Source: Collodictyon triciliatum
Lineage: Eukaryota
Length of the DNA: 60,177 nt
Assembly (NCBI GenBank): GCA_043381765.1
Contig: JBHJMP010000835.1
Span: 1-60,177 of the forward strand
Reading direction: 5' to 3'
Both the position numbers and the translations under genes were made by a program. The notes below the pieces were generated by a model. That model ran no database searches, had not been told where the DNA came from, and saw nothing but the letters and a program-made list of their open reading frames with translations. Each line of letters begins with the position of its first letter. Position 1 is the first letter of the stretch. This document shows, piece after piece, positions 825 through 50,521 of this stretch.

Positions 825-1313
825 AATAGGATGTAAACCTTGTCTGATATAGACGGTTGAAAGGACTCGTCGGAATCGATTTGAGAAGTAACTGCCATGT
901 GCGTACTTTCATCGACCCGACAACTTTATGCGCTCTTTTACAAGTGTCTCGAATACAACCAGAAATCGCGTTGGAGCTGATTCACCTCGGGTAGAATAGT
1001 CTGCGTATGAGAACACTTTCTCTCCTTTCTGTATTTTTTTCTTCTTCCTTTTCTTTTCTTTCCACTCAAAACACAATCTCCAACCACACAATCCGGGGTT
1101 TTCCACTGTCTCGTCCACAGCTCATTTCTTGTCCTAGAGGCGAAGGCGGTTTCCTCGGCTTTGTTTTCTCTCAATAAACTGTTGATTGTAAAAAAATATA
1201 ACAATTTATATATGGCATCATATAGAAAATGGTATGTGAGTTATTTTTTATTGCATGGGAGTGAGTGAGAGGGAGAGATAGAGGGAGAGGGAGAGAAAAT
1301 TTTAGTGTAAATT

Positions 1314-4300
1314 TCAAAGAGATGCTGTAGAATCATTTAAATCCTTCATTTCCTGTTCTTCTCTGGTAATAATCCATTTGTTTTTCATGTAATTGATGGC
1401 ATATGATTCTATCATAATTCGGTATATTGGTTGTGTGAATCTCTTCATTTTAACCAGGAAAGACATGATCAAAGCGGGTCCAGCTTTCATTAAAGAGACA
1501 GCTGCAATCATTCCATTCAACAAAACAACCAGTGCCACAAGAAAATATTCTGAAAATATACTAAGGTCTGTATATCTGAAGAGAAGGCTTGTCATCAAGG
1601 TGAAGTAAAGGACCGAAATTGAATAAAGTTGAGATTTTCTGAGAGCATAAGATATGAAAGGTTTGAAATAAAGCGATGATGCAATTACAATTAAAAGCAG
1701 CCATAATCCAAAGTAAATTTGCAAGGCTGAAGAAAAGAAAATACTGATTATAACGACAAGCAACTTTTGCATCATAGTCACGATTTCCCAGTAAAAGCAT
1801 TCTTCAGTGTATCCATCAACCAAAAATCTAAGTAAGTTGTATGTATTTGACGTTGGATTAATCAATGATGACCTTTTGTAAAACATGTATGCAGCGAGAA
1901 TAAACGGGCCACCAAAGCAGTAAATAATCACATAAACAAGAGCAATATTTTTCCAAGCCATATAATTTGCATCATCACACATTATCGACATGTCAGCCTT
2001 CAAGTAACTTAAGTCACCAAACCTCTCGCAACGGAGGATATTCGATATTGACGACATAATAGTGGGATGAACTAAAAATAGCATAACCAGCACGGAAAAT
2101 ATAAACTCTTGGTTGATTTTGAAGAAAGTAACATCTCTGCCATTCATTTGATTGGTTTTTAATCTCCAAACTGTTTTGGTTGTCACTATAAAAAGAACTA
2201 CTCCTATCAACATCAGAGGGGTCATCATTGAATACAGAACCTTATCATAAATTGTCATTTCGAATCTGCATTCCATCGGGTATGAATCTATTGATAACGA
2301 AAATGAAAAGAGGGCTGGTATTTTCATTATTGAAATAATAGTGGAACTCCATTCTACATCAAAGTTTGCCAAGTATGACAAAATTTGGAAATGAGATGCA
2401 AGTGTTTTTAGAATCTGTATTTTAGCTGTCTTTGGCTGTCTTGATTGCTCTATCATGAACAAAACAAACAACAGAGGTACTGCAATACTGAGAAAAATTA
2501 AAAATCCACTCGTTCTTTGGTTGGGGCATTTTGTACAATAAACACCAGTCTTGCCAAAACCCTTTTTACAAACACTGCAAAGGGCCCCGGTATATCCTTC
2601 AGCACATGTGTTATTGCCTCCGTTGCATGCATCATCATTAAGACATTTATAAGCAATATAATCTCCGTTGGATGTTGGTGCTTGCCAGTATCCTGGTGCG
2701 ACACTCGGCTGGCTACTTCCATCACAAATGAAACCTGTTGGACAATCTTTGCATAGCTTGGCCTTTGCCTCGAGATATGTAGATGGAATACATTTGCAAT
2801 CTAAAACAGTAACTGAGCCGGTCATATTTGTGAACGAGTTTATTGGGCATTCTTTGCAAAAGTTTTGTCCAAAGTTTTCATTGTAAGTGCTTGGAGGGCA
2901 TTCATAGCAGTTTTTTTGCTTTTCATACCACCCAGGTTTACATTCGCAAGTAGAATTCCTGAGTTCAAACCCATTACTGCAGACACAATCGATTGAATTC
3001 ATGGAGCCATTATTTTTTGTGGTAAATTTATCACCACACGAGAAACAAAAGTTTGTGTCGTTTGTTGATTTGTATGAGCCAAGTCTGCACGGAGCACATT
3101 TGTTACCATCCTCGAATTGTCCTGGGGGACATGTGCAAGCGCCATTGAATGATATGTACGAATATAAGCACGTGCAATATTTGATTGACTCAGAGCCTTT
3201 TGCGGTTGTAGTTGACCGAGTAGGGCATAAGTTGCAGTAGGTGCTTCTCTCTGAACTGTAGCTTCCATTTGGACATGAAACACATGATGATTTATTGTAT
3301 GAGCCAGTTTTATTATTGAATGTCCCAGCTGGACACGATGTGCATGATGCTTGACCATCCTTATCATTCCAAGTACCTTGTGGACATTCAATACATGATG
3401 AGTTTCCATATGAGCCGGAGTATGAGTTGAATGTGCCTATTGGACAAGCATAGCATGAGTTCGAGTCTTTTGTGACACCTTCTTTTTGGTATAATCCTGA
3501 TAAGCACAGACTGCATGATGCGCTTCTCTCTGAGCTGTAGCTTCCATTTGGACATGAAATGCATGAGGGTAGATTATATGAGCCAGTTTTATTATTATAT
3601 GTTCCAGCTGGACATGATGTACATGATGCTTGGCCATCTTTATCATTCCAAGTACCTTGTGGACACTCGATACACGATTTGTTTGCATATGAACCGGAGT
3701 TTGGGTTGAATGTGCCTTTTAGACAAGAGTAGCATGAGCTTGAGTCTTTTATGATTTCTTCTTTTTGGTAGAATCCCGATAAGCATGAGCTGCATGAAGA
3801 GCTTCCGGCTGAGCTGTAGCTTCCATTTGGACATGAAATGCATGAAAATTGATCGAATGAGCCAGTTTTGTTGTTGAATGTACCAGCTGGACACGATGTG
3901 CATGATGCTTGACCATCTCTATCATTCCAAGTACCTTGTGGACATTCAATACATGATATCTTTCCATATGAGCCGGAGTTTGTGTTGAATGTGCCTTTTA
4001 GACAAGAGTAGCATGAGCTTGAGTCTTTTATAATTCCTTCATTTTGATAATATCCTGATGAGCATAGGCTACATGATGAGCTTCTTTCTGAGCTGTAGCT
4101 TCCATTGTGACATGGAATGCATGATGATTGATTAAACGAGCCAGTTTTGTTGTTGAATGTACCAGCTGGACATGACGTGCATGATGCTTGACCATCCTTG
4201 TCATTCCAAGTACCTTGTGGACATTCAATGCATGATTTGTATCCATATGAGCCGGAGTTTGGGTTGAATGTGCCTTTTAGACATGCATAGCATGATTTTG

Positions 4301-7300
4301 AGTCTTTTATTATTCCTTCTTTTTGATAGAATCCTGATAAACACAAGCTGCATGATGCACTTCCAACTGAGCTGTAACTTCCATTTGGACATGAAATGCA
4401 TGATGATTGATTGAATGAGCCAGTTTTGTTGTTGAATGTACCAGCTGGACATGATGTGCACGATGCTAGACCCTCTCTATCATTCCAAGTACCTTGTGGA
4501 CACTCAATACACGATTTGTTTCCATATGAGCCAAAGTTTGAGTTGAATGTGCCTTTTAGACAAGCATAGCATGATTGTGAGTCTTTTTTGATTCCCTCTT
4601 TTTGATAGAATCCTGATAAGCATAGACTGCATGAAGCGCTTCTTTCTGAGCTGTAGCTTCCATTTGGACATGAAATGCATGAGGGTAGATTATATGAGCC
4701 AGTTTTATTATTATATGTTCCAGCTGGACATGATGTACATGATGCTTGGCCATCTTTATCATTCCAAGTACCTTGTGGACACTCGATACACGATTTGTAT
4801 CCATATGAGCCGGCGTTTGAGTTGAATGTGCCTTTTGGACAAGAATAGCATGATTCCGAGTCTTTTGTGATTCCTTCTTTCTGATAGAATCCTGATAAAC
4901 ATAAGCTGCATGATGCGCTTCTTTCTGAGCTGTAGCTTCCGTTCACACATGATATGCACGACGATTCATCGAATGAGCCAGTTTTGTTGTTGTATGTACC
5001 AGCTGGACACGATGTACACGATGCTTGACCATCTCTATCATTCCAAGTACCTTGTGGACATTCAATGCATGATAAATTGCCATATGAGCCGGAATTTGAG
5101 TTAAATGTGCCTTTTGGACAAGCATAACATGATTTTGAATCTTTTGTGATTTCTTCTTTTTGATAGAATCCTGATGAACACATGCTGCATGATGCGCTTC
5201 CAACTGAGCTGTAGCTTCCATTTGTACATGATATGCATGAAGATTGATCGAATGAGCCAGTTTTGATGTTGAATGTGCCAGCTGGACACGATGTGCATGA
5301 TGCCTGACCATTTCTATCATTCCAAGTGCCTTGTGGACATTGTATGCACGATTTGTTCCCATATGAGCCGGAGTTTGAGTTGAATGTGCCTTTTGGACAA
5401 GCATTACATGATTCAGAGTCTTTTGTCGCACTTTCTTTTTGATAGAATCCTGATAAGCATAAGCTGCATGAAGCACTTCTTTCTGAGCTGTAGCTTCCAT
5501 TTGGACATGAAATGCATGATGAATCATTATATGAAGCAATTTTGTCGTTGAATGTACCAGCTCGGCATGATGTGCAGGATGCTTGACCATCTCTATCATT
5601 CCAAGTACCTTGTGGACATTCAATACACGATACATTTGCATATGAGCCGGAGTTTGAGTTGAATGTGCCTTTTGGACAAGCATAGCATGATTGTGAGTCT
5701 TTTGTGATTCCTTCTTTCTGATAGAATCCTGATAAACATAGACTGCATGAAGCGCTTCCAACTGAGCTGTAGCTTCCATTTGGACATGAAATGCATGATG
5801 AATCATTATATGAAGCAATTTTGTTGTTGAATGTGCCAGCTGTACAAGATGTGCATGATGCTTGACCATCTCTATCGTTCCAAGTGCCTTGTGGACATTC
5901 AATGCATGATTTGTATCCATATGAGCCGGAGTTTGAGTTGAATGTGCCTTTTGGACAAGAATAGCATGATTTGGAGTCTTTTGTGATTCCTTCTTTCTGA
6001 TAGTATCCTGATAGGCACAAGCTGCACGATGAGCTTCTTTCTGAGCTGTAACTTCCATTTGGACATGATATGCATGATGAATCATTATATGAAGCAGTTT
6101 TATCGTTGAATGTACCAGCTGGACATGATGTGCATGATGCTTGACCGTTTCTATCGTTCCAAGTGCCTTGTGGACATTCAATACACGATGAGATTCCATA
6201 TGAGCCAGAGTTTGAGTTGAATGTGCCTTTTGGACAAGCATAGCATGATTTGGAGTCTTTTTTGATTCCTTCTTTTTGATAGAATCCTGATGAACACAAG
6301 CTGCATGAAGAGCTTCTTTCTGAGCTGTAGCTTCCATTTGGACATGAAATGCACGATGATTGGTTGAATGAGCCAGTTTTATCGTTGAATGTACCAGCTG
6401 GACATGATAAACACTCATTTCTTCGCTTATTTCCATAAGTTCCTTTCGGACATTGAACACATGAAGAATTCGAACCGGAGCCAAACCATGGATTGTAAGT
6501 TCCTTCAGTACAATTTAGACATTCAGTCTGCCCTGGAAATGGATTGTAAGAACCAGATGGACAAATTTCACATGTTGATTCTCCTGATTTTGATGAATAT
6601 CTTCCTATTGGGCAAAGCTGACAACTGCTGTCATTTAGAGCTGCAACATTTGGATTATAAGAACCAGCTGGGCATTTTTTACAGAAGGTCCCTTTAGTCG
6701 AGTTTGAATACGTACCTGGGTTGCAAGGTGTGCAAAATGCTTTTCCTGAATCTTCATTGTAGAATCCTAATGGGCATTCAAAACATGATGATTGTCCTCG
6801 TATATTAGTGTATGTTCCTGGTTCACAATTAAGGCATGATACTTGACCAGTTTTGTTGTTATACTTTCCTTCCTCGCAAAAAATGCAGGAAGCAGAGCTT
6901 GTAGAACCAGTTGCATTATTGTAAGTACCGATGGGACAAGATAGACAATTGTATTGACCTGTTTTAGGGTTGTAAGTACCTACTGCACATGTTGTACAAG
7001 CAACAACACTTGTGGAGCCGGTCGATGGATTATATGTACCAGCTGCACATGAAAGACAAGAATCCTGGCCATAAAGTGGGTTGTATTTTCCAGCTGCACA
7101 TAAAATACAGGCACCAATACCTGTAGAGCCCGTCGATGGGTTATATGTGCCAGCTGCACAAGGAATACAAGCTCCAATACTTGAAGAACCTGTCGATGGA
7201 TTGTATGTGCCAGCTGCACAGGAAGTACATGCATTTTGACCTGTTAATGAATTGTATGTACCAGCTGGGCATAAGGAACAAAGTGAAGTTCCTCCAATAC

Positions 7301-8276
7301 TATAGCTTCCGGTTGGGCATACCTGACATGATTTTGAAGCTGAATCATAAAAGAAACCTGCAACACAAAATTTCCAAATTCCTATTTTCGTATCATAACT
7401 TCCAGAAACGATTTTTGAACCATCATTAGTGACAGCAACACTCCTAATCCAATCAGTATGACCAGTCCATTGACGAATCAAAGCTCCATCTGAAAGATTC
7501 CAAATTTTGATCTCTTTCCAACTCCCAGAAATAATTTTTGAACCATCAGGAGATATAGCAACGCTATTAACGTCATCAGTATGACCAGTCCATTGGCGAA
7601 TCAAAGCTCCATCTGAAAGATTCCATATTCTGATTGTTTTATCAGAACTTCCAGAAATAATTTTTGAACCATCAGGAGATATAGCAACGCTATTAACGCC
7701 ATTAGTGTGACCAGTCAGTGTGCGAATAAAATCTCCATTTGGAAGACTCCATATTCTGATTGTTCTATCAGAACTTCCAGAAATAATTTTTGAACCATCG
7801 GGGGTAATAGCAACACTTGTAACCTGGCTAGTGTGACCTGTCAATGTGCGATTCAAAGCTCCTTCTGAAAGATTCCATATTCTGATTGTTCTATCCCGAC
7901 CTCCAGAAACAATTTTTAAGTCATCGCTAGTAACAGCAACACCTAACACTTGGTCAATGTGACCAGTCAATGTGCGGATCAAACCTCCATCAGATAGATT
8001 ACAAATTTTAATTGTTCTATCAGCACTTGCAGAGACAATTTTTGAATCGTCACGAGTGATGGCAATACTCATTACATAATTTGAATGTTCAGCCAATGTA
8101 CGAATCAAGTAGTCATTTTGCCCTTCAACTTGAGACATTCGGAAGTAGAGTACTAATCCTAAATATATGTGATACTTATTATAATTGTAAATTTTTTATC
8201 AAATGATAAATATATTATATTTAATTGACGCACCTAACAGAAAAACATATGCAGTAGACTTTGAATTCAATCCCAT
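1314..8276 (-). CDS. Large surface receptor-like protein: signal peptide, 6 WD40 repeats, long Cys-rich CxxGxY/F (GCC2/GCC3, ephrin-receptor-like) repeat stalk, C-terminal ~7-8 TM module
   Basis: Exon 1 8276..8234 (MGLNSKSTAYVFLL-G), GT-AG intron 8233..8159, exon 2 8158..1314 in frame with the 2274-aa ORF; the joined N-terminus MGLNSKSTAYVFLLGLVLYFRMSQVEG is signal-peptide-like. Contains GH..VxSVA.SPDGSKIISGS.D.TIRIW repeats, dozens of CxxCPxGxY motifs, and hydrophobic helices with KILxxHFQ-like, YLKADMSIMC and FYWEIV motifs; ends in TGA. Confidence 0.9.
3240..6405 (-). repeat. Intragenic tandem array of 279-bp (93-aa) units, 11 complete plus 1 partial
   Basis: The unit CPAGTFNxKTGS...CPNGSYSS...CLSGFYQKEG...CPKGTFN...CPQGTWNDRDGQASCTS recurs with a 279-nt period and high DNA identity. 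Confidence 0.92.
7372..8110 (-). repeat. Six ~126-bp (42-aa) WD40 repeats with high internal similarity
   Basis: Near-identical DNA blocks recur, e.g. ccagaaataatttttgaaccatcaggagatatagcaacgctattaacg at ~7525 and ~7651. Confidence 0.9.
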
Positions 8277-9963
8277 TCTAAAAAAAGTGCAACATATGTT
8301 AAAATGGTGGTAGTATTTTATTTGAATGGCACATTTCATTATTCTTTTCGTTTTTAGTTAACTTAATTTTATTTAGATGCATATCACGTTTAGTTTTCAT
8401 GTATTCATAGATACATTAGTATAAATAGTAAATAAGTAGAATGAAGCTGTAAAAAAAACATTTATTAACACCTTAAATCAACATAATATGTTTCTCATTT
8501 GGAAATTTAGCGTTTATATTTTGGTTTGTAAAAGGTAATCTTTGAAATTTATTATAATTCACGTAGAAATAAAACAGTATGTTTATATGTCAAAAATTCA
8601 TCTTCACATCTCAATAGTAATGTTTTCTTGGGAAAAAATTGAGCTGTTTGGTTATTTAATTCATTTGTATAGTGCGATTTTGGATTAACTACTTATATGT
8701 AAACTTTGATTAATTAAGGTTTATGTAGATGCATTATAAAATATATTTCGATAAATAATTATATTTGCAAAATATTATCAATATTTTTGACTACGTAGAT
8801 AAATTTTTGGGAAATTCATGAATTGTGCTATAATATGCTATGATTAACATGTATTGATTTGGAATGGCGTGATTCAAAATCAGAAGAAAAGTAATATCAG
8901 AAGCTTCAGTTGGCACGAATATACTTTGCATAGTATAAGTTGTCACATAATTAAATAACAATTTTCTTGATAACTGAAATTTCTTAGGGAGCTTAATTTC
9001 AAAATTTAATTACACATTTAAATGTAATTTAAAATGAATCTCTTAAAAATCTTTCAATTATCTCTTTAACAGTCTATCCTTTTGCATCATTTTGGGAAGT
9101 TTTGGCTCATATGACCATGGGCATGAAACAGATTCCGAACCAAAGAAATTGAGTTTTGTTCTAGATAGAAATATTTTATCTGATGTAAGGCAAAAAAATA
9201 TGATAATGATATGTTGCACTTCATATTCTGATCTGATTATATTAAATTTAATAATGGAATACATTAATTGATGAAATATAGAATAAGATTGATTATGTAT
9301 TATTAAAATCAGCAGAAACATAATTCAAGCAATAAATTACGTCCTATTATTGGGATGGAAATGAATTCACAACTGCTTAAAGAATCATAATATATAATGA
9401 GGGTATTTTATATTATCTTCAATATTTGAATGGTTTTGATATGGTTTAAGCACAAAGTGTTGTTCATAAATTGATTCATAATGGTCAAATAATGTCATCA
9501 TGATTGTGTTTCAAAAAAAGAGAAGATGGCGGGTTTATCATATGGTTATTCGCCTCCGAGAAAAACTTTGCCTATGATCCAATCAAGTTCAGAGCCCTTG
9601 GTGATTGCAGCTCTTTAGAGTTGCAACTATTATCGACCCTCTTGGATGTATAGAGACGAACCACGAGATTATATTCTACTTCAAGCTGACCTGCACTAGA
9701 ATTCTACAAGAGTACTGCTTTCAACCAAGGCGCAGCAACTACGTTGAAGCGGTAAGCATACAAACCTCCTTCTCTTGAGTCGATAAAGGAAAAAATTATA
9801 AACGAAACTGTTCGAATTGATAAGTATAATTTTATGTTGAAGTGTGTGGAATTTGAAGTATGTTAGATTTTATCGCTGAAAAAGGCTAAATGTTGACTTT
9901 GGAAGACAGAGATCTATAAATAATCGTAGTTATTTTAAAATTAACCCCTGGACTAAAACCTAT

Positions 9964-10019
9964 ACAGTGAAACAGAAACAAAAGACAAAAACAAGAACAA
10001 ATGACAAAAGACAAATGAC

Positions 10020-10060
<41 letters not shown>

Positions 10061-10190
10061 CAAAAGACAAAAGACAAAAACAAGAACAAAAGACAAAAGA
10101 TAAAAGACAAAAGACAAAAGATAAAAGACAAAAGATAAAAGACAAAAGACAAAAGACAAAAGACAAAAGACAAAAGACAAAAGACAAAAA
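9964..10190. repeat. (GACAAAA)n / (TGACAAA)n simple repeat
   Basis: Directly visible heptamer array. Confidence 0.9.
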
Positions 10191-11697
10191 AAAAACACTT
10201 TCATCATGGACCTTTACTTCATATCGTCAGGAAAACGGGTAGCCTCTATCCAAAGTCTATCCCTTTTCAATTAGCACGTTGAAACGGTTTTCTTAGCTAC
10301 ATGTTTTGTCTTCTGTCTTTTTTCTGTCCTCAATGGATCTGAGCTTTATAAATTGATGATTTTGGATATTTCAATTCAAAATGAAGAAATTATGTTAAAA
10401 ATAAAAATTTTAACTGAAAACCAGAGAAAATAACATTTCATTACCTCATGAGTCCACTATAATCGTTTATTGAAACAAGAAAACATAATTTTGAGATAAA
10501 AGGATACAAATATACAACTGACATTGAATTTTCAAATTACAAGTGAGATTATTAGATAGAAACTCATAATTGGTTGTATACAATTTGATTAGGTAAAAAC
10601 ATAAGGATGTTTTAATATTTGCTATCAGATCGTGGTATATGCATAAAAATTCTTATTATTGAAAGAATTTAAAAAAGTGGCACAAAAATGTGGAAGTTTA
10701 CCATTACTGTGCTTTTGAGCCATTAAATATCATAAGAATCATATATCTTAGATTTCATAATACAATATAAGGTCATGAATATATTTTAAGATGATTTAAG
10801 GGAATGGTGCATATAATCAAAATCAGTGAGACTTCTAATGTTGAAATTAATATATATATATATCCTTATTGAAAAGAGGAATTTATCATGCTCTAATCTA
10901 ATATGAAGTATCTAATATTAAGGAAATGGCATCTCCTAAATCACATGTGTAATAAACAAGTAAATATGGAATATATTCTAGATTGCCCATAGATAAAGTA
11001 CTATAAAAAAGATGAGCTTAAAATTTAAGTTGAAAACGAAACAAATTATTTTAATGGTGTTAAATTAGCATCTAAAGGAGTCGAATTTTTGTCTTGTTTT
11101 CTATTGGATCCAACACCATCTGGTGTCGTCTGTGTCTATTTACAACTTAGTTGTAATATTTGGCCGAGATCGAAAATAAATAGGGTAACCATTCTATTTG
11201 GCATTATGAGACTATCTGTATTTGATTATTAGCATAATGAGGAATACTTTACCTCAACCGGATGATTGCACTACAAATTTCTGATTAAGCTGTCGAAATA
11301 GACGACTCTTTTCGAACTAAAGATCAATTACGCTATATTTTCAAAAAAAATGATGGATTGTATTTACTAATTTATGAATGAATACAAGTACGTGTTTCTT
11401 GGGGTTCAACTAAAACCAATTTCCTTATTTTAATATGATACAACCAAGTTTTTTTTATTAAATTATGCACAGTTGTTTATTAGTTCAATATAAAATTTTC
11501 GTGGCTACTAGATACGACCTTGTGAATAAAACAAATGGCACAGGAAATGTAAAAACAAAAACTAAATTACGTGTTAAATGACTGCGCAAATTTAATCATA
11601 ATCCTTCGGCGGTGGTGCGTACTCATGTACGACAAAAAGACTAAGAGCCGAAATTAGAAACAGTTGAACAATTTTGGCTCCATTAAAAAAACAAGGT

Positions 11698-19127: not shown

Positions 19128-22100
19128 TTACTCAGCCGGCGGCTCCCACGATGTCTTGCCCGTGAGTGTGTTGTAGTAGTAAGTCCTTCCGCTAGCTTCG
19201 TCCACAAGTGTCTTCACGTGTGAGGGCATCACAGGTGATGTCGGGGACAAAGGCTTAGCCTGCGACTGCAGCGGAATCGGGACGGGCAGTTGGAAGCCCA
19301 TACTCGCGCGCAGGTGCGACGGCTTCAACACAGTTGGCGCAGGTTCGGGCTTTGGCGGTTCCGTAACTATCGGCGCGACAGGCAGCACTGAGGCTGAAGC
19401 AGAGGCTGCAAGAACGGCCGGCGTGGTGGACGATGGATTAGACGCGCCAGTTTTGTCCTGCGATGGGTGGTTGAGTAAAGACAGAGCGTTCCCGACGTGG
19501 TTGGATATGTCCTCACCCTTTCACACATCTTGTACTTTTGCAGAAGAGATGTCTCGTAGCACAGAAAGACGAAGGCGTTTGCGTGTGGGGGACTTGGGTC
19601 TCCTCGCGATGGTGGGGTGCGTTCGGCCTCGGGGATGTTTTTCAAGGAGACGGCTTTACGGGACTCCTGTGACGATTCGAGCATTTGATGTGACCCATCT
19701 TTCAATGAACATGATGAAAGTAAATAAAACAAAGATGCAAGACGAATGTCTGGTTGTGTTGTGATGATTGGTGGTTTCTTACCTGCTCCCATCGCCCTTT
19801 CACGGTAAAGACGTTTTCGCGGTTGTAGACGCGGTGCATAACTATGACGGGATAAAAGCAGAAGAGGTTTGTAATTAGGTGGGGATGTGTAATGTGCTGA
19901 TGCTGGTCTTTGGTGCTAATATACCAATTTTCAAATCCTCCAGTGCTGAAAAGATTTTGACACGATATTGGGAGATTTGAGACGCAATGGTAGCTTTCTG
20001 TTGTGGGTTTGTAGCGTGCGTAGCATGGTAATATCGGATGATTCCTTCCAGTTTATTAATTTCGCGTTCGTGGTTGATAATCATTTTTTCCAGTTTTGCA
20101 ATCGACGCTGTTTGTAAAAAANNNNNNNNNNNNNNNNNNNNNNNNNNNNNNNNNNNNNNNNNNNNNNNNNNNNNNNNNNNNNNNNNNNNNNNNNNNNNNN
20201 NNNNNNNNNNNNNNNNNNNNNNNNNNNNNNNNNNNNNNNNNNNNNNNNNNNNNNNNNNNNNNNNNNNNNNNNNNNNNNNNNNNNNNNNNNNNNNNNNNNN
20301 NNNNNNNNNNNNNNNNNNNNNNNNNNNNNNNNNNNNNNNNNNNNNNNNNNNNNNNNNNNNNNNNNNNNNNNNNNNNNNNNNNNNNNNNNNNNNNNNNNNN
20401 NNNNNNNNNNNNNNNNNNNNNNNNNNNNNNNNNNNNNNNNNNNNNNNNNNNNNNNNNNNNNNNNNNNNNNNNNNNNNNNNNNNNNNNNNNNNNNNNNNNN
20501 NNNNNNNNNNNNNNNNNNNNNNNNNNNNNNNNNNNNNNNNNNNNNNNNNNNNNNNNNNNNNNNNNNNNNNNNNNNNNNNNNNNNNNNNNNNNNNNNNNNN
20601 NNNNNNNNNNNNNNNNNNNNNNNNNNNNNNNNNNNNNNNNNNNNNNNNNNNNNNNNNNNNNNNNNNNNNNNNNNNNNNNNNNNNNNNNNNNNNNNNNNNN
20701 NNNNNNNNNNNNNNNNNNNNNNNNNNNNNNNNNNNNNNNNNNNNNNNNNNNNNNNNNNNNNNNNNNNNNNNNNNNNNNAAAAAAAAAAAGGATGGTTAAA
20801 AGAGAGAAGAGCTGGGGTAGGGAAGTTCATGTTGTAGGCTGTTAAAATTGTAATAGACTAGATACTATGGTATTTGAAAATATTATGTAGGATGTCATAT
20901 AAATGAAGAGTCCATGCAATATAATTTGACGTTATATTGACAGCGTGCTTGACGTGCATTGATTGGAGTGTTACTTGACTGGCTCCAGGGAGTTGGATGG
21001 CAGCACCATACTTGGTAGCCACAAGGTTTGAGGAAGCATCGGAGGTGGAGGGTTTTCCTTCATTCAAGAATATGTATTGCAAATGTGGTTCATCCTGTGC
21101 AAAAAAAATGAATAAATTACAGATATTTTCAACAGCCAGCAAGCAAATAGCATAGAGGGTAAACATATAGAAAAATAATTAATAAAGAAAAAAAAAGGAG
21201 AATATAATCGAAGATGTGATTTTTCAGGTCTGATTAATTGGTTTAATTCATTAATTATTTACTCTGTTTTTTTGTTTTTTGTTTTTTTTTGTTACTATGT
21301 ATGTGTCATTAATTTGATGCTTGAGTAAAGATAGAAGAAGAAATGAGTGAATTTTTAACCTTCCAACATTCAAGAGCATTGTATTTGACCATTGGCTGAA
21401 TGTTCATAAGATAGAAAATCTATATTTCATGTGATTGAATTAATCATTAATTTTATTTATAGGGGAAAAAATTTGAAAGAGAAAGATAGAAAATATATAC
21501 ATGCATGATTAAGATAGAAAGAACTCTTGTGGATTTTGTTAATTCTGCACATACTTTTTCGTCTGGCTCTTCAGCAACATTTGTCTTTTTAGTGGTTTTT
21601 TTAGGTTTCGCTTGTAGTTCAGCAGTCCCTTTGACCACCCAGTTTTGATGAATCATACCGAGCTTGTTGTTTTAATTTGAGTGGCCAGATTTAGTGCATA
21701 TACTGATTATTGTATGAAATACACATACTTTTTTTTTTAAAAAAAAAAAAACTATGCTGTGGATTAGTTCATATTTATGCCTACGTTTACAAACATTCAT
21801 CATGAAAAAGAGAGAGAGAGAGAAAGGGAGAGATGTCTTGAAAAAATAAAGCCCAAAAAGAAAAAAAACCTCGTCGTCAGGAAACGGATGTTCCAGAATG
21901 GAGGATATCTCTTCCAGCGTCGAGTAAATTGTCCGGCAGCACTGCAGCAAATTTGCATCCTCTCCTTCTCTCTGGGAATGAGTATTGGAGTACAACCCGG
22001 CGAACTGATTAAGGATATCCTCGATATTCTCCTTCTTTGTCTCCTCCTCGGAAATCTTTTTCAAGAGAGACTCCAGCGTTTCTATACCAAGACGGGCGAT

Positions 22101-40493: not shown

Positions 40494-43400
40494 TCACGAC
40501 TTCCCTGTTCCCTTCTTCTTTGGTGCAGGATTCGCTCGTGCGGCTGTCTTTGACTTTGGCCGGTCACCATCTTTTCCATCGCGCTCTTTCTCGCGGCTCA
40601 AAGAGCGGTCTTTAGCATCTTTTCCACCTGCAGAGGCATCTGCATTGAGAACTGCAGCCTGAATCCGCTGCGATTCAAGCATCTTGTAGTATTCATCCAC
40701 CGTTGATACAAGCCCAGGCCGGTCCACGAGCACAACATCCTCAACAGCGATTCGTGGGTTGTTCTATAAAGTTTAAAATCCGCCGTTATCATTTATTTAT
40801 TTATTTATTTTTACTCTATTACATTGCGCCATTATTTGGATATCTATTTACTCTCCTGCCTTCTTCTTTGGTGTTTTTTTTTTCTGTTTGACATAAGAGG
40901 ACAAATTGATTGTTGAGTGTGGCTTGAGTGTGTTATTACGGTGGGTGTTTGTAGGGTGTTTGTGAAGCTGAATCCGGTTGATGGAGTCGCCGGGACTGTG
41001 AGTTGTGTGTTTGCTGCTGTTGGGCCTGGAATGGATGGAGAAAACCAAGGAAGGTTGTACCGCTCGCAGACTTTGCGCAGCTCGCGTACGGAAAGGTTGG
41101 GAATATCCTCTGCCTGTATTTTAAATTACGACAGTTCCTTTTCAATTCAATTTATGCATATTAAAAAGAAGAAGAAAAAAAAAAGTAATTATTCCAAACG
41201 GCCTCAATAAAATGGACACATCGAACGAGAAGCCAAACCTTAATCTTTTCAGGGCTGAATACAGGCGTATAAACACGTTCTTCCACCTAAAAATAAAATA
41301 AAATAAAGAAAAAGCATGAAATATAATGCTAATGAAGAAAATGAAGAAGAAAACACTGTCAGGCGATATATCAGACAGCCCAAATAACGTGAGATGGATA
41401 ATTAGAATAAGAAGAAAAAAAAAGGGAAGCACCAACAATTCAAAACAATTCAAATTAAGTTCAAATTAAGTTAACATTATATTTGGTAAAGGACTAGCTA
41501 TAATTACCTTTTCGCTTGTTGCTTTTTTGAGGGCAGCCTCTGCCTCTTCAGCCGCGTTGTTTGCATCTTGTATAGCAATTTTGGCCAGGTCCAAAATTTG
41601 ATGAATATTTGATGAGCATGTCGAGTTAAAACAAAAGATTGCGTCATGGGCAGCCTTTCGAGCACGGAAAACAACCTCTACAAACGAATCTGCTTTTCGT
41701 GGATTCATCTCGAAGATTGGCTGGGAAATCGCGGCATATGATACAAAAAAAAAAAAAAATTAATTGTGATAGATTATTTTTGCCGTTAATTATATTATGA
41801 GTGCATTAGTCAAGGAGAGGCAAGTGTGTGATGGAATCGTAGACATATTTTAGAACGTAGAAAAGGGAAAATGAAATAAGAATAAAGAAAGTATGGTTTT
41901 TTTCTTTTGGTATAAACCTGGTTCACACCCTGCACATACTCCGAATATGTGCAATCTGTCTGAATCATCCATGACCGCAACGCCATTTTTATGCCTTGGT
42001 CAGTTTGTGCGATTGCGCCGCTTGGGGATTCGGTCAATCGTCTTTTAAAATAAAAAAAATCAGTTGGCACTCACTCATGAATGTGAATAAGCTTAAATGC
42101 AATAGTCTTCTAATTCAGCCGAAACTGAAATGAATATAGAAGCGTTTGATAGAGTGTAATATTTTAATCACATTAATGAATTGAAATTGTAGTATATATC
42201 AGTAGCTTTACGTTGTGGTGGAGTACGAAAATGAGGATGATGAAGCGCTTCTTGTGACTGGACTTTGTGCGCGATTTTCTGCAGGTGATATTGGGCGAGC
42301 TTCGGGTGTAACCGTGCGTGAGTCTGGCAAGTTCGCCTGGAGAAGCAATGTGGTATATTCCATTGGCTCATCGGAGGCAGTTTTCTGTTATAGTGTATGT
42401 TTAAAAAAAAAACCTTCTTTCAGGCAAAAGTCACAAAATTATTTGAACTATGCAAATTTTATGGGAGTAAATAAATATGCTTTTGAGAGCAAGCGTTCAC
42501 TGACACAATGAGGGGGAAAACAAGTAAATCAAAATCAAAATCAAAATCAAAATCAAAATCAAAATCAAAATCAAAATCAAAATCAAAATCAAAATCAAAA
42601 TCAAAATCAAAATCAAAATCAAAATGAAAAAGAAAACGAAAACGAAAAAGGAACAGAAAAAAGGCCAAGTGATGAATCAAAAGAACGAAGACGCAGAGAA
42701 AAAGAAAGGGAAAATGAGAACTAGACAGAACAAACATCAAGATTTTAAACTTCATTTTGACATGTTGAGAAAAGTATATATATACAAATATAACGTACAT
42801 CCCAACAATAAATTCCTGTTCTCTTCGACACTAAAAGTGGTAAGATTCTAATGGTTATTCTTGCATAAAGTTTTTATCAGTTATTTATATTATTTTTAAA
42901 AGAAAACTAAACACAGAAATCAGAAAACAAATAATGTATACCCTGTTGCTCGTTCATGTAAAAGCCCTCAAACCAGCACTTCTTCTCAGACCAATACTGA
43001 CAACCATACCTATTTCGTTTTTTAAAAAAAAACAACCATCACAACAATAATTGCATAATCAAAAACAATTAAATAAATGAACAAAACAGAATTAAATATC
43101 AGGCACAGACAAAAAAAAATCCTGATACAATCCAAAATTAAGTAGCAAAAACAATAATATATACTTAAAAATAGCAATAAAATGTTGAAAAAATGATTGC
43201 AAACATCCAGGGGTTTTTTTTTAAAAAAAAAAGAAGAGTAATAAAAACAAAAACACCACTGAGCATTTTCCGAGAGGCATACCCGTCATGTTGCCCACCC
43301 GCCCACTCGCCAGCGTAGTAGTCCCCATTATCGCAGACATGCACGCCAAAGCCAGCAATCGCATCGGTCATAAACGAGCCACGATAATACGCGCCTTTCT

Positions 43401-44148
43401 TGGGCCACTGCAGAATCCCACGCCCGTGCCGCCGTCCGATGCAGAACTCGCCATCGTAGACAAACGCAGCGTCCTTCTCTGCCGCAGCGCCTCTCGAATG
43501 CTGCAGCGATGCAGAGCCGTGTGCTCGCCTTTGCATCGCATGATCAAACGTCTTTGCCGGCTGCGTGAGTCGTCCGCGTCCGTGCGGCTGATCTTCAATC
43601 CAATCCCCCGCATAAACGCGCCCGTCCGGGAAACGCTGAACGCCGCTTCCAAAGCGCCGATCCTCTCGAAAGTCCCCCCGATAAACACTCCCGTCTGCAA
43701 AGCGCAAAACTCCCACGCCGTGTGCCGCTACAATCGGCTGCGTCTGAGGCTGCGTCTGCGACTGTGGCCCGCTCTTTGTCTCGTTTGCCGACTTCACTCG
43801 CGACTCAGTACGCACCTGTTTGGTTGAAAGGCGCTGAGTACGTAGTTCCGGCCGGCAAGGCAAAGCAAAGCAAAGCAAAGCAAAGCAAAGCAAAACAGAC
43901 AAGGAAGCGAAACAAAATGACAGCTGAGTCGTGTAGGCTGAGTCGAGTATTACTTGTCCCGTGTAAGACGCTCGGCCAAAGGGATCGTCTGCTGCATAGA
44001 TGATTGTGTCCAGGCGAAAGCCGATGTCTGGCTGGGCTGTGGTGACTGGACGTGTGCTGGCGCTGCTAGGATTGAGGCTGCTGCTTTTCTTGGGCTCTGT
44101 GGCGTCTTTCCCTTCCTGCTTTGGTTCTTTTGCCTGCTTGCTGCTCAT
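40494..44148 (-). CDS. MORN-repeat protein, multi-exon
   Basis: HGVGVLRFADGSVYRGDFREDRRFGSGVQRFPDGRVYAGDWIEDQPHGRG...YDGEF...YYAGEWAGGQHDG; downstream exons traced in frame to a basic C-terminus ...KKKGTGKS-TGA. Confidence 0.85.
42526..42624. repeat. (AAAATC)n microsatellite in an intron
   Basis: Directly visible. Confidence 0.9.
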
Positions 44149-44678
44149 CCTCACCACAGCTCGGTCTCTCCTGTGCGGTGGGCTGTGGCATAAGTTCGTT
44201 TGTTTGTTAGCATATTTATTCATTCATTTGTTTGTTTTGTTTGTTTTGTTTGTTTTGTTTGTTTTGTTTGTTTTGTTTGTTTTGTTTGTTTTGTTTGTTT
44301 TGTTTGTTTTGTTTGTTTTGTTTGTTTTTTTGATTTGTTTATTTGTTTATTTGGTTTTTCCTTTTGTTTATACATTCTGACGTACTATGAGCACAATAAC
44401 CTTCTCGTGCGTCTGACAGGCTATTTGATCCTCGAAGAAAAATAAAGCCAAAAAAAAAGGCAGATGGGTGATTCTGAAAGCGAGAGTGAACACGCCTTCC
44501 TTTATAGAGTCCTTTCAAAATGTAATCGTCGTGCTGTGTATATTTTGTCACAATTATTATAGACGATTAAATCATCATAAACGAAATTACTGTTCTGCTC
44601 CAAAAGCATTAATTTTTTGTTTCATTTCATTTCCATTATTTTTCAATAGCTCATTGTTTTATCTTTTAAAGGGTCTAT

Positions 44679-47600
44679 TTATTCATGATAATTGCGAGGG
44701 CTGTCGATTTCCGGCGCAGCAGGCTGTACAGTGATTTGCCTTGTTACTACATTGCGTTCAAAAAATGGTCTAATGAACGCTAAAGTGAACGCAGTTGCGA
44801 GCCAGAGGGCATTTAAACCAATAAGTAGCCCGGTTATCCATTCTTGAGAACCAAGGAAACTTGAGAGGAGCACCAAAAACAAAGAGAGAAAAATAACATA
44901 CAAGCTTGATAATTCAAGATTGTTTTCAAGGTCTGAATTGTAAGGGCGGTGCTCTCGTTGCATCCAGATGGATGCCTTTAGACAATAAAAACGAAACAAA
45001 ACAAAAATACATCGATGGTGTTTAGAAATGGTCAAAATGACATAAAAGAATACTTATATTTTAAGTGTAAATGAAAAAACAAACCTGGATGATAATGACC
45101 AAAAAGAGAAACAAAACTGTTGGATGTGTATATGGTATGACACTGACAAAGAAAGAAAATGCCACCCGCCTTGCTATAATAATAAATTCCCAGTGCTTGC
45201 AGTTCTATATTCGAAAAAAAAACTTTAAAAAAATTATGTTTTTTCAAGAGCATATAATCCGAGTAATTTTTTTTTTAAAAAAAAAAAGGGTCAAGCATCA
45301 CGCTTTCAGCATGCTACTTACATATTTATATGGAAGGTAAATAAATCCGTAACGTCCTTTTGTCTGGCTGTCTGATTTTTCTTCGCTTTTTTTTACCACA
45401 GACCATGTATAGAGAGGAAATCCGATTATGAATATCACCAGAATAAGAAAGGAAACACCAAGCATATTGGAGTATTCTTCAGAATACGGACTGCATTTAA
45501 TCCAAGGGGCGTAGTTCAAGTACCAAGTTTCGTCCCCCTCATCAAAAAGTGGGGGGCCCATAAACACCAAAAACCTCTTTTGCCATGGAGTAGTAGATAA
45601 AGAATAGAAGGTTCAGATTTATGAAAATAACCTACATTTAGAAAAATTATCCTTGTCATTTATGTGCATTTTCCAAACCCAACACCAGAAAATGAATGCA
45701 ATGATATAAAATAATTGACAATTTTTTACATTAAGTATCTAATTTTTTTAAAAAAAAATTAGAGAGAAAGACTATTTATACCTTGTCTTTCATCTTACTT
45801 GAGCCGAATGCATATACCATAAATGCAACCATTATGAATATTGGAATTCTGACAAAGCTTAAGAGTAGTGCGTAAAGTGGACTGGATGAGCCGATCATGC
45901 ATGATGTGTTTGGAGAAATTATAGAACCAAGAGAAAAGAGTACATAGATGACGCTACTTTCATTTTCCGGCGAGGCTATTCCAGAGGATATTACCGATAT
46001 GGTTTGCGCGTGAAATAGGATGATTCTGATCTTGGCTTTTATTGTATTGAATCAAATTTTAAAATCAAATAGCTATTATATGTATAAATAGATTTGATAA
46101 AAATAAATCATTAAAAAAAAAAGACAAAATGAAGATAGAGTGTAAAAAAACCTGTTTTTGACGTTTCAGTGAAATAATAGTAGGCCAAATATAAACAAAA
46201 TGCGGTGACACCGATGATAACTGTCAAGTAAATCGTCACATCTTGACACTTTGTGCAACCCCTTCCTTGTCTTCCATACCCATCAGAACATTCAGAGCAC
46301 CCATGACCTTGGAAACCAAGAGTGCATAAGCGCGTGATATTTGGATTGGTGTTCGTAAATGTACTTCTCTTCGAAATTTCTGTTATACAAGAATCAGGAC
46401 GAGAGCAAGGAATTATGGTTTTTATATTTTCGACATTTGGTGAAGCAAAACATTTTCTCAAGGATATTCCATCAACACAATCACACCCCCTCGGACAACG
46501 CACACATTTGTTTCCAAATCCAAAGTAGTTTGGAAGGCATTCGCACAAAATGTGGTCATAGTAAGATGGATTCAGTCCAACCTTAACCTTTTCGAATCCT
46601 GGCTGAAGTATGATGGAAGGGCACAAAAAAGATTCCGTTTTATCATTTAAAGTAAATGGATTTCCATAGCTCATGAATTCTGGGAGTATGGGACTACCTC
46701 CATGATTCATACTCGGGCAATCGAGTCCCAAGTATTCAATTTTTGTAAATCTATCATAAGAATTAGGAACCTTTCCTTTGATTGGATTTCCCGATACGTC
46801 AAATACTTCCCATTTCAACAGACTGGTGAGCTCTCCAAGACCTGATATCTTGTTATTACGAGCACTAAACGTTTTCAAGGTCAAAACATAGTCAAATATC
46901 CACCAATTTATTTCACCAGCCAGCGAATTGTCATCGAGCAACAGGGTCTGGTAAGCGTAGTTTAGGTCATCACTGTTTGGTGATATAAAGCTACCAATAT
47001 CCCCAGAGAACGAATTGTTTCTCAAATCTATCAGAATGAGATCGGCGAGATTCCAAAAGTAAATTGGCATACTGCCATATATCTTGTTATGCCCCAAGTT
47101 GATGGATTTAAGTGTGTAGAGTCCTTGAAAAAAGTCTGGAACAGTTCCGATTATGGAGTTTCTCGATAAATCAATGTCTTGTAATGATGTAGTATCCCAA
47201 GAATATGGAAAACTGCCCAATATTTGGTTTTCACTAAGGTCTAGTCTTTTCAAAAGCGTCAGGTTGAATACTGGAAGTGAGCCTCCTAAACTATTTCTGA
47301 AAAGCACAATTTCTTGGATGCAGGGACACTCAGCAAAATTTGAAATTGGGCCAGAAAGCTGGTTGTCATATGCTGAAAACACTAGCATATTTGTTACATT
47401 GGAAAATATTGGAATGGACCCTATTAATCATCAAGTCTCCATATATTAGGTTTTAACTATACTCCAAATGTTTTCGAATCGAATAAAGGGGGAAATCATA
47501 GACCACATATATGGATTTATTTAATCAGGTTTACACCATTTATATTGTTTCCGGATATATCCAAAGTAGTCAGAAAAATCAAATGGCTAAAGTTTGGAAG

Positions 47601-49393
47601 AACTCCTATGAAAATGGTGTAGATTATGTGAGTTATTCAAAAAATTACAGTCTGATGTTCAAATCCTTCCAAAAAAAAAAGGGGAAGGAGCCCGACAAAG
47701 TAAACGTTACCTTCAAGGTTATTATTTGAAATGTTTATGATATTTGAATTTGGAAAGTGCTGGAAATCAGGTATAGTTCCTACTCAATTTTTTTTTTTTT
47801 TGTAAATGTTAATGAATTTCAATCTAAACAATATTTACTTGCTCTATGCCTATCATTAAGATAAATGCATATGATGCAGTGATCTGAAAAATGAAAAGAA
47901 AAACCTGTCATTAAGTTACTTTGGAGATATATTTCCACAACACTAGAAATCTTGTCGAAAGAAGGAATCGAACCTTTCAAATGAAAAAGACGCATATTAA
48001 TGTTAATTAGTACTTTCAGTGAATGCTTTTCGGCACACTGATTGCCTTAGCAAATAATATATTATAGAAAATACACCCCACCTCTGAGTTTATTGCTTGA
48101 GAAGTAAATCAACGTTACAAATGGCAAATCACTGAAGTTAGATATACCTACAATTCATTTTTTCTATAAATTCAAATGAATTAAATAAATATTCGGTTAT
48201 TTCTCTTCATAAGTTACAAAATAGTAGTTAACTGTCAATATTGGTGTTATATATCCCCAGAATATCGACGTTCGGGATTCCGAGGAAATTCGGTAGCATT
48301 CCTTTTTTTCAAAAACAATTCAAGTTAATAAATAAAAGTAGTAGAGGTTGCATAAAAGGGAATTAAGGATAACCGTGAATCCGGCGACTGGAACCTATCC
48401 AGAGAACACTTATCAATGGTATTCCCGTAAAATTTGGGATGGTCCCCTCCAATAAATTTCCATCGATTTCCAAATTATTTATCTTTGGAATTCCTTGGAA
48501 ATTTGGAATCGTACCAGTTATTTGGTTTCCATAAAGATTTATGTACTCGATCGACGGAAGGTTAAAATCTGTCAATCTCCCAAATATTGCATTGAAACTG
48601 ATGTCGATGTTAGTCAGGAACATGAGATTCTCAGCAATTAGTTTAAACTGATGAATATCGCCATCTAAATTATTCCCAGATAGTTGCAAACCAATAACAG
48701 GACAAGTATCCACCTGTGCAATATAAAGTTATTACATGCATATGTTTCAAAAAAAAAAACTAAAAATATGAATACAATTAAGAGATATAGTTTATCGATT
48801 TAAATCAAAGTATGCCTCTTCATTTGAGCACTTTGGGTCACAGATGACTCCAAACCAATCACAAATCGAAGTGGTCGCGTTTTTCCAACCGTGGCTGTAA
48901 AACCAGCTTTCACCCCCAAATGAACTATACAGTTGTAATAGATGGGCTCTATCCCCCCTTGGGTCGCTTTTAGGCTGACTCGCTGGCGAATATGGTATAT
49001 CAGCATGGTTTTCAATATTCCTTTCTTTTAAATAACCATCTATTTTCGTCCCCTTGTCATTTAGGCTACCTTTCGAGTCATGAGAATGATCTTCATAACC
49101 TTTCGGATATGAGGGATTTTGTGCCATATGAAAAGAAGGGTGTCCTCCTTCTCTTCCTGAATAATGCTGATTGAGAGTACATATATCGCTATGCATTTGC
49201 ATTAGTAAATTCAGCACATCCTGTGAACTCAATGACATGAGTTCAATTTGACTGAAGTTGCATCCAGATATTGCACTTTTTCTACGTATTAAATCAACAC
49301 GAGGTTAAAAAGTGGGAAAAGCAATTCTATCTAGATATAATTTTACTCGCTCCTGGGAATTGATGAAGAACTGCCGATCGATAAAATCGCCAT
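44679..49393 (-). CDS. LRR receptor-like protein: LRRNT cap, plant-type LRRs, Cys-rich linker, C-terminal multi-TM module; true start uncertain (hydrophobic stretch extends to ~49430)
   Basis: DRAHLLQLYSSFGGESW...ICDWFGVIC cap; LxLxxNxLxGxIP repeats; CTLGFQGHGCSECSDGYGRQGRGCTKC; KIRIILFHAQT; YLNYAPWIKC; RPYNSDLENNLE and TM helices; no kinase domain. Confidence 0.85.
47455..47510 (+). mobile_element. Short dispersed element, copy C, with degenerate duplication
   Basis: tttcgaatcgaataaagggggaa between aactatactccaaatgt and aatcatagaccacatat (11/17 identical). Confidence 0.6.
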
Positions 49394-50162: not shown

Positions 50163-50521
50163 NNNNNNNNNNNNNNNNNNNNNNNNNNNNNNNNNNNNNN
50201 NNNNNNNNNNNNNNNNNNNNNNNNNNNNNNNNNNNNNNNNNNNNNNNNNNNNNNNNNNNNNNNNNNNNNNNNNNNNNNNNNNNNNNNNNNNNNNNNNNNN
50301 NNNNNNNNNNNNNNNNNNNNNNNNNNNNNNNNNNNNNNNNNNNNNNNNNNNNNNNNNNNNNNNNNNNNNNNNNNNNNNNNNNNNNNNNNNNNNNNNNNNN
50401 NNNNNNNNNNNNNNNNNNNNNNNNNNNNNNNNNNNNNNNNNNNNNNNNNNNNNNNNNNNNNNNNNNNNNNNNNNNNNNNNNNNNNNNNNNNNNNNNNNNN
50501 NNNNNNNNNNNNNNNNNNNNN
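50163..50521. other. Assembly gap (N run)
   Basis: Ns in the sequence. Confidence 1.

Follow-up and report, generated by a model that had tools for sequence, protein, structure and literature searches.

A WD40 propeller as the likely outward-facing head of a long cysteine-rich membrane protein in Collodictyon triciliatum

Canonical GH-WD repeats nearly always belong to cytosolic or nuclear proteins, in which they act as intracellular scaffolds. The gene described here, found in a 60,177-nt stretch of Collodictyon triciliatum DNA (the window), joins six such repeats to a long array of cysteine repeats and to a bundle of membrane helices, and it raises the question of which side of the membrane the WD40 part would face. 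The first-pass annotation had proposed a hidden first exon supplying a signal-peptide-like leader, an extracellular or luminal WD domain, and a novel receptor architecture.

The protein is encoded on the minus strand by a stop-to-stop ORF of 2,293 codons (window 1314-8195), which runs without interruption and holds all parts in frame. In the predicted spliced form, an ATG-started candidate exon 1 of 43 nt (8234-8276, minus strand), comprising 14 codons and one base, carries the n-region and the first half of a hydrophobic core. A candidate intron of 75 nt (8159-8233, GT...AG, 84% A+T) separates it from exon 2 (1314-8158), a single uninterrupted exon that holds the remaining coding sequence and ends with the stop codon TGA (1314-1316). 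The predicted spliced product has 2,295 residues, with 185 Cys and 49 N-x-S/T sites, 48 of which precede the first membrane helix. Along the minus strand, the six canonical WD40 repeats (7368-8108) are followed by a cysteine-rich stalk (2649-7367), a DUF7630 module (PF24633, 2526-2648), a multi-pass membrane base (1452-2519), and a C-terminal tail (1317-1451) that the AF2 model draws as a continuation of the last helix. The stalk begins right after the last WD40 repeat, and the junction contains no linker, stop, frame change, or hydrophobic segment. We regard the locus as a real and apparently complete gene, with candidate leader exon, head, stalk, DUF7630 module, base, and stop codon within 7 kb.

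All three parts of the mature protein named by the first-pass annotation were recovered. Its six WD40 repeats corresponded to six stretches of PF00400 (158.1 bits against a cut-off of 27, E 1.9e-47). Its approximately 1,600 residues of Cys repeats with many N-x-S/T sites corresponded to 35 stretches of the Ephrin_rec_like family PF07699 (706.9 bits against a cut-off of 23.1, E 1.6e-218), and its C-terminal membrane bundle to seven to eight helices in both the hydropathy profile and the AF2 model.

The WD40 units are 42/42/42/42/41/38 residues long, and TRF described the array as 5.6 copies of a 126-nt period with 78% matches (7372-8074). The fifth repeat is one residue short and lacks the usual Asp. 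The structure prediction of the N-terminal part, which the first-pass annotation had called for, gave a WD40 propeller: the AF2 single-sequence model of the first 310 residues has four strands per unit and a block pLDDT of ~79-95 over most repeats. Foldseek agreed, with highly repetitive WD40 propellers (7big, 2ymu, 5yzv) as its best matches (E 1e-27 to 1e-24, probability 1.00). These best structural matches of the head, i.e., Nostoc punctiforme 2ymu, the WRAP-T designs 7big/7bif, and Thermomonospora 5yzv, share 31-44% identity with it. The models thus support a propeller fold for the six canonical repeats, of the highly repetitive (HET-E / Nostoc-like) kind. On seven-bladed propellers and designs, 243-245 columns of the head model superpose with an rmsd of 2.7-2.9 Å, and the modelled geometry appears nearer to six of seven blades than to a closed six-fold ring. 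Since there are only six repeats and they superpose on seven-bladed propellers, the ring may be incomplete.

The sequence relatives of the head are ordinary WD40-rich proteins with 37-55% identity, some of them named HET-E-1 or NACHT. Such WD40-rich proteins dominated the N-terminal homologue search, in which 6,720 of 8,000 candidates passed, and Ephrin_rec_like was not found in the Pfam matches listed for 120 of these homologues. In the fungal HET-E/NWD NACHT-WD40 relatives, WD40 comes together with NACHT/STAND-type or other intracellular-type domains, whereas no NACHT or other STAND NTPase was found N-terminal to the focal WD40 array, and no NTPase domain appeared among the 25 best of the 42 Pfam families for the focal protein. 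The number of repeats also differs, as the focal protein has six, with 68-87% DNA identity, against seven or more in the highly repetitive WD40 / HET-E-type relatives. The most variable columns of the focal repeats, with five residue types among the six repeats, lie three and five residues after GH and directly ahead of the conserved Asp, which we take to be roughly the positions reported as hypervariable in HET-E-type repeats.

On a different account, the locus would not be a working gene but a chimera of recent origin, silent or in decay, or else a false join in the assembly; a WD40 array would have been fused to a stalk gene by repeat-driven recombination and left one blade short. The count of six repeats, the short fifth repeat without its Asp, and the AF2 geometry of six out of seven blades are consistent with such an origin, as are the highly recombinogenic 279-nt array of the stalk and two N gaps elsewhere in the window. 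Furthermore, a search with the 43 residues of the WD40-to-Cys junction returned no close orthologue (eight candidates, none at E ≤ 1, in a set of 5.8 billion proteins, for proteins of 178-2,000 residues). However, a frame of 2,293 codons remains open in A+T-rich DNA, and no N run lies inside the gene. In GC3, the WD40 part (0.225) agrees with the stretch of stalk next to it (0.24), and the head therefore looks neither foreign nor recently imported. In addition, the array is not a fresh duplication, since its repeats have diverged to 68-87% DNA identity. We consider this account very improbable. The two N runs (20122-20778, 657 bases, and 50163-50521, 359 bases) are assembly gaps, and the ORFs that cross them in all frames are for this reason artefacts.

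The stalk consists of Ephrin_rec_like (GCC2/GCC3-type) repeats and contains a tandem array (3243-6408) with a TRF-type unit of 279 nt (93 residues), 11.3 copies, and 86% matches. Given this array, the length of the stalk is probably unstable, and the assembly may have collapsed or expanded copies. The DUF7630 module was matched at 29.6 bits (cut-off 27) over residues 32-72 of the 475-residue C-terminal query and adjoins the first membrane helix (residues 75-100). It was also matched in 11 of the 22 members of the base alignment (10 of 21 relatives).

Hydropathy places a series of hydrophobic helices at the C-terminal end of the protein. With a 22-sequence alignment, AF2 modelled the base at a pLDDT of 87 and a pTM of 0.81, with seven to eight long helices and one short, conserved, Cys-bearing beta-hairpin loop that adjoins the invariant Cys238 and Cys255. 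The residues invariant in this alignment are C238, C255, G310, and Q341. Foldseek returned no match for the fold of the base at E ≤ 1e-3. Hrd1, the best hit of VIA-align (Z 8.2), was rejected as a fold match because it falls within the noise range of that tool for helical bundles, and the matches of a PDB sequence search with the base were discarded as spurious (E ≥ 0.11). PF06011, the fungal Pkd2/Flc-type 'TRP' family, had no match in the focal base at E ≤ 1. Among base relatives, it was found in two of 25 at E ≤ 1e-5 (P0195 and P0219) and in three of 22 at E ≤ 0.01, and its cut-off of 28.5 bits was passed by one of the 47 relatives scanned (P0195, 29.3 bits). These matches suggest a distant link of the family and serve as a lead for a channel-like base only.

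The base is what connects the focal protein to a wider family. An exhaustive HMMER phmmer search with the last 475 residues yielded 7,431 representatives at E ≤ 1e-3 and 78 at E ≤ 1e-30, with homologues at E 1e-94 to 1e-27 aligning over query residues ~1-415. The best match was a 293-residue fragment with 56% identity, followed at ~32% by sequences from the transcriptomes of Rigifila ramosa and Mantamonas plastica, while the nearest named relatives showed 28-34% identity over ~400 residues (E 1e-65 to 1e-27). Among the 150 best representatives, 130 start with Met, and 55 of these 130 have a hydrophobic N-terminus. In 25 scanned members with such an N-terminus, the heads comprised TIG, FG-GAP, RCC1-like, PQQ, lactonase-type propeller, CUB, LNR, EGF, and beta-helix domains. 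Propellers were thus present in RCC1-like (P0139, P0142), FG-GAP (P0132, P0147, P0149), PQQ (P0195), and lactonase-type (P0237) form. At E ≤ 1e-5, Ephrin_rec_like was matched in 12 of the 25 and DUF7630 in one. A word-indexed C-terminal search added only four weak matches, with CUB/LRR, FG-GAP, and TIG heads, three of which reach the DUF7630 cut-off. Judged by these sequences, the base family is very large, eukaryotic, and almost unstudied, with a predicted layout of signal peptide, variable head, TIG/Ephrin_rec_like stalk, DUF7630, and multi-pass base.

A distant multi-exon paralogue lies in the same window (44680-49304, minus strand), with an LRRNT_2 + LRR head, a DUF7630-like Cys module, and membrane-base exons. 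Its pre-membrane Cys module matched the focal one by tblastn at E 5e-5. A tblastn search of the focal protein against the rest of the window gave nothing at E ≤ 1e-3, and the relaxed run gave this pre-membrane module only. A 'KTAKI' motif after the first helix is common to both genes once a 116-nt intron is removed from the paralogue. An intron read by eye at 45781-45632 breaks the frame and was dropped. The 5' end of the paralogue may lie past the N gap at 50163-50521. Elsewhere in the window, a MORN-repeat ORF (window 43165-44223, minus strand, Pfam E 6.4e-18) adjoins a short-period repeat (44200-44350) that is open in several frames.

The scanned members and the LRR-headed paralogue indicate that heads are swapped on one chassis and that propellers other than WD40 are already common on it. 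The focal protein shares the base of this family and has DUF7630 directly before the first helix, but its WD40 head is unlike those of the 150 best representatives, and its stalk stands out by its length and homogeneity. A local HMM of the six focal repeats, which matched all 120 WD40 proteins of a positive control, found WD40 in none of the 150. A scan of metagenomes gave 593 stretches, 507 of them related to WD40. Eighty loci with 37-51% identity were kept, all of them without accompanying cysteine repeats, and the matches are therefore generic WD40 genes. The ESM Atlas returned WD40 clusters only, with scores of ≤0.86 and no architecture lead, and our literature search found no description of WD40 together with Ephrin_rec_like repeats or DUF7630. 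The claim of a novel receptor architecture is thus too strong, as the chassis belongs to a huge existing family with other propeller heads: the WD40-headed protein is a new variation on a known receptor layout and not a categorically new system.

The placement of this head depends in part on how translation begins. The exon at 8276-8234 joins exon 2 in frame, and a hydropathy heuristic scored the resulting N-terminus as signal-peptide-like: its n-region contains a single Lys, its apolar core spans 13 residues, and small residues close its c-region. The hydrophobic core is completed beyond the junction by the in-frame extension of the long ORF. If the intron were kept, the frame from ATG 8276 would stop within 8159-8233. 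The best 10-residue hydropathy of the candidate spliced leader is 2.75, which is inside the range of the family leaders, compared with 0.98 for the product from ATG 8138. The latter codon (8136-8138, minus strand) is the first in-frame ATG of the long ORF and would be the start if exon 1 were unused. Its context is poor (C at -3, T at +4), the residues after it are hydrophilic and form no hydrophobic leader, and it leaves 10 residues before the first WD40 repeat. The context of ATG 8276, with A at -3 and G at +4, is the better of the two. A five-codon upstream ORF (window 8277-8295, minus strand) has its ATG 19 nt before ATG 8276 and ends one base before it, and it would weigh against this start only if the 5' UTR extends that far.

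The enumeration covered every ATG/GT/AG combination with an intron of 40-400 nt and a first exon of ≤150 nt, and of the 26 open spliced starts, the one with candidate exon 1 alone gave a signal-peptide-like model. In 2,000 Markov-randomised upstream regions, 5.7% contained a leader as good as the candidate and 6.2% passed the 2.3 threshold. Taken alone, the leader is therefore suggestive but not significant, since ~6% of the randomised regions match it. In the neighbouring paralogue, three introns that pass a frame check measure 109-117 nt, have 74-84% A+T, and show loose GT/AG contexts. Although shorter than these, the candidate intron is of the same kind. The hidden first exon of the first-pass annotation accordingly keeps its GT...AG borders, its in-frame join, and its position as the only signal-peptide-like model among 26, while its leader is equalled in 5.7-6.2% of the randomised regions. 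On these sequence features, we consider the candidate leader exon probably right.

A related account leaves the head outside the cell and moves the leader: the protein is exported, but its true signal peptide is encoded by another, more distant upstream exon, with 8276-8234 as a chance look-alike. The ~6% rate among the randomised regions is consistent with this, and so are the loose splice contexts of the neighbouring gene, whose donors read GTTTTT, GTAAGT, and GTTTGT, and the limits of the enumeration at introns of 40-400 nt and first exons of ≤150 nt. On the other hand, the 4 kb upstream have 28-29% G+C, with ORFs that are simple-repeat or short, and no further WD40 or Cys-repeat exon or convincing coding ORF was found there. 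Moreover, a far exon would also have to use the very ORF extension that continues the hydrophobic core of the candidate. We regard a distant signal-peptide exon as unlikely. A simple tandem repeat in the upstream region (9890-10226) would read as repeated 'LSFVFC'-like peptides in several frames and looks non-coding.

The number of sequons in the head provides an independent hint. The WD40 part contains five, corresponding to 1.95 per 100 residues, while the density in 120 control WD40 proteins is 0.74 per 100 residues at most, with a median of 0.30, so that the focal density is 6.5 times the control median and 2.6 times the control maximum. In four of the six focal repeats, N-L-S stands at the usual W-D position, and W-N-x-S/T was found in 67 of 2,564 control repeats. 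Since the repeats are copies of each other, the sequons they carry do not count as separate events, and their enrichment is taken as a hint of luminal exposure.

These sequons also bear on a reading in which ATG 8138 is the start codon, no signal peptide is made, and the WD40 propeller and the cysteine-rich region before the first membrane helix are both cytosolic. It agrees with the established cytosolic or nuclear location of nearly all canonical WD40 repeats, with ATG 8138 as the first Met of the long ORF, with the absence of disulfides from the propeller, and with the candidate status of exon 1. It would, however, place ~1,600 residues of Ephrin_rec_like repeats, 185 Cys, and 48 sequons in a reducing compartment. 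The poor context of ATG 8138, the sequon density of the head above all 120 controls, and the base homologues, which are signal-peptide-led and carry extracellular-type domains, also speak against it. A cytosolic head is quite improbable in our judgement.

We consider an extracellular or luminal position of the WD40 head to be most likely (probability about 0.8). It is the most economical reading because the homologues of the stalk and base are signal-peptide-led surface proteins. As to the location claimed by the first-pass annotation, the canonical propeller does stand N-terminal to a stalk and base with such homologues, while a leader as good as that of this gene arises in ~6% of randomised upstream regions.

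The full gene model that we favour, and hold to be reasonably probable, is a member of this large surface-protein family with a six-repeat WD40 head. In this model, translation would start at ATG 8276, the 75-nt intron would be removed, and the spliced leader would act as a cleavable signal peptide. We infer that the N-terminal ~1,880 residues, comprising propeller and stalk, would then be translocated, disulfide-bonded, and N-glycosylated, that the stalk would keep the propeller at a distance from the membrane, where it would act as a binding head, and that any signalling would pass through the membrane base.

Two known systems resemble this arrangement. As described in PMC9670195, the CRMPs of Plasmodium, Toxoplasma, and Tetrahymena begin with a signal peptide and an adhesive head, continue with EGFR-like cysteine repeats, and end in several C-terminal membrane helices, and a role as contact sensors has been proposed for them (see also PMC9815656 and PMC3083381). 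According to the discussion of that paper, localisation and topology data for TgCRMPa favour an N-terminus outside the cell and a C-terminus in the cytosol (PMC9670195). The focal protein has the same general layout, and the comparison is one of layout. The function of the CRMPs, rhoptry or mucocyst exocytosis, is alveolate, and their heads are MAR/Kringle domains (PMC9670195), whereas the focal head is WD40.

In the ectodomain of the plant receptor kinase CRINKLY4 (ACR4/PpCR4), a signal peptide is followed by an N-terminal seven-bladed propeller that its authors call WD40, a cysteine-rich domain, and the membrane, and the propeller carries signalling function (bioRxiv 10.1101/2020.08.10.245050). 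Its authors describe BLIP-II and UVR8 as structurally nearest to the CR4 propeller, which has a buried N-terminal strand and a disulfide in every blade, and treat the blade disulfides as an extracellular adaptation (bioRxiv 10.1101/2020.08.10.245050). Both proteins thus share the order of propeller, cysteine-rich domain, and membrane. However, CRINKLY4 is a single-pass kinase and its propeller is not a GH-WD array, while the focal protein has GH-WD repeats without blade disulfides and a multi-pass base. If the focal head is indeed displayed on a glycosylated stalk, the WD40 fold would be able to function in the secretory pathway, where conditions are oxidising and proteins are glycosylated, with no need for a disulfide in each blade.

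If the placement is true, the WD40 head would be a new head type for a huge, almost unstudied family of protist surface receptors, whose apicomplexan look-alikes, the CRMPs, are triggers of host-cell invasion. A more speculative proposal, which we put forward as doubtful, is that this head belongs to a set of recognition modules that resemble HET-E but face outwards, this protist having moved the repeat-shuffling WD40 sensor of intracellular NLR-type receptors to its cell surface. Blade number and binding-face residues would diversify by recombination among repeats and paralogues, and the binding of prey, partner, or pathogen would be passed via the stalk to a Pkd2/Flc-like base acting as a channel or signalling unit. 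If the head family did diversify like the fungal HET-E repeats, it would represent an independent invention of a variable extracellular receptor. Because the gene is apparently complete within 7 kb, this copy is a useful and clean construct for work on export, glycosylation, and binding. Directly after its stop codon lies a CT-rich, microsatellite-like stretch (window 1240-1310).
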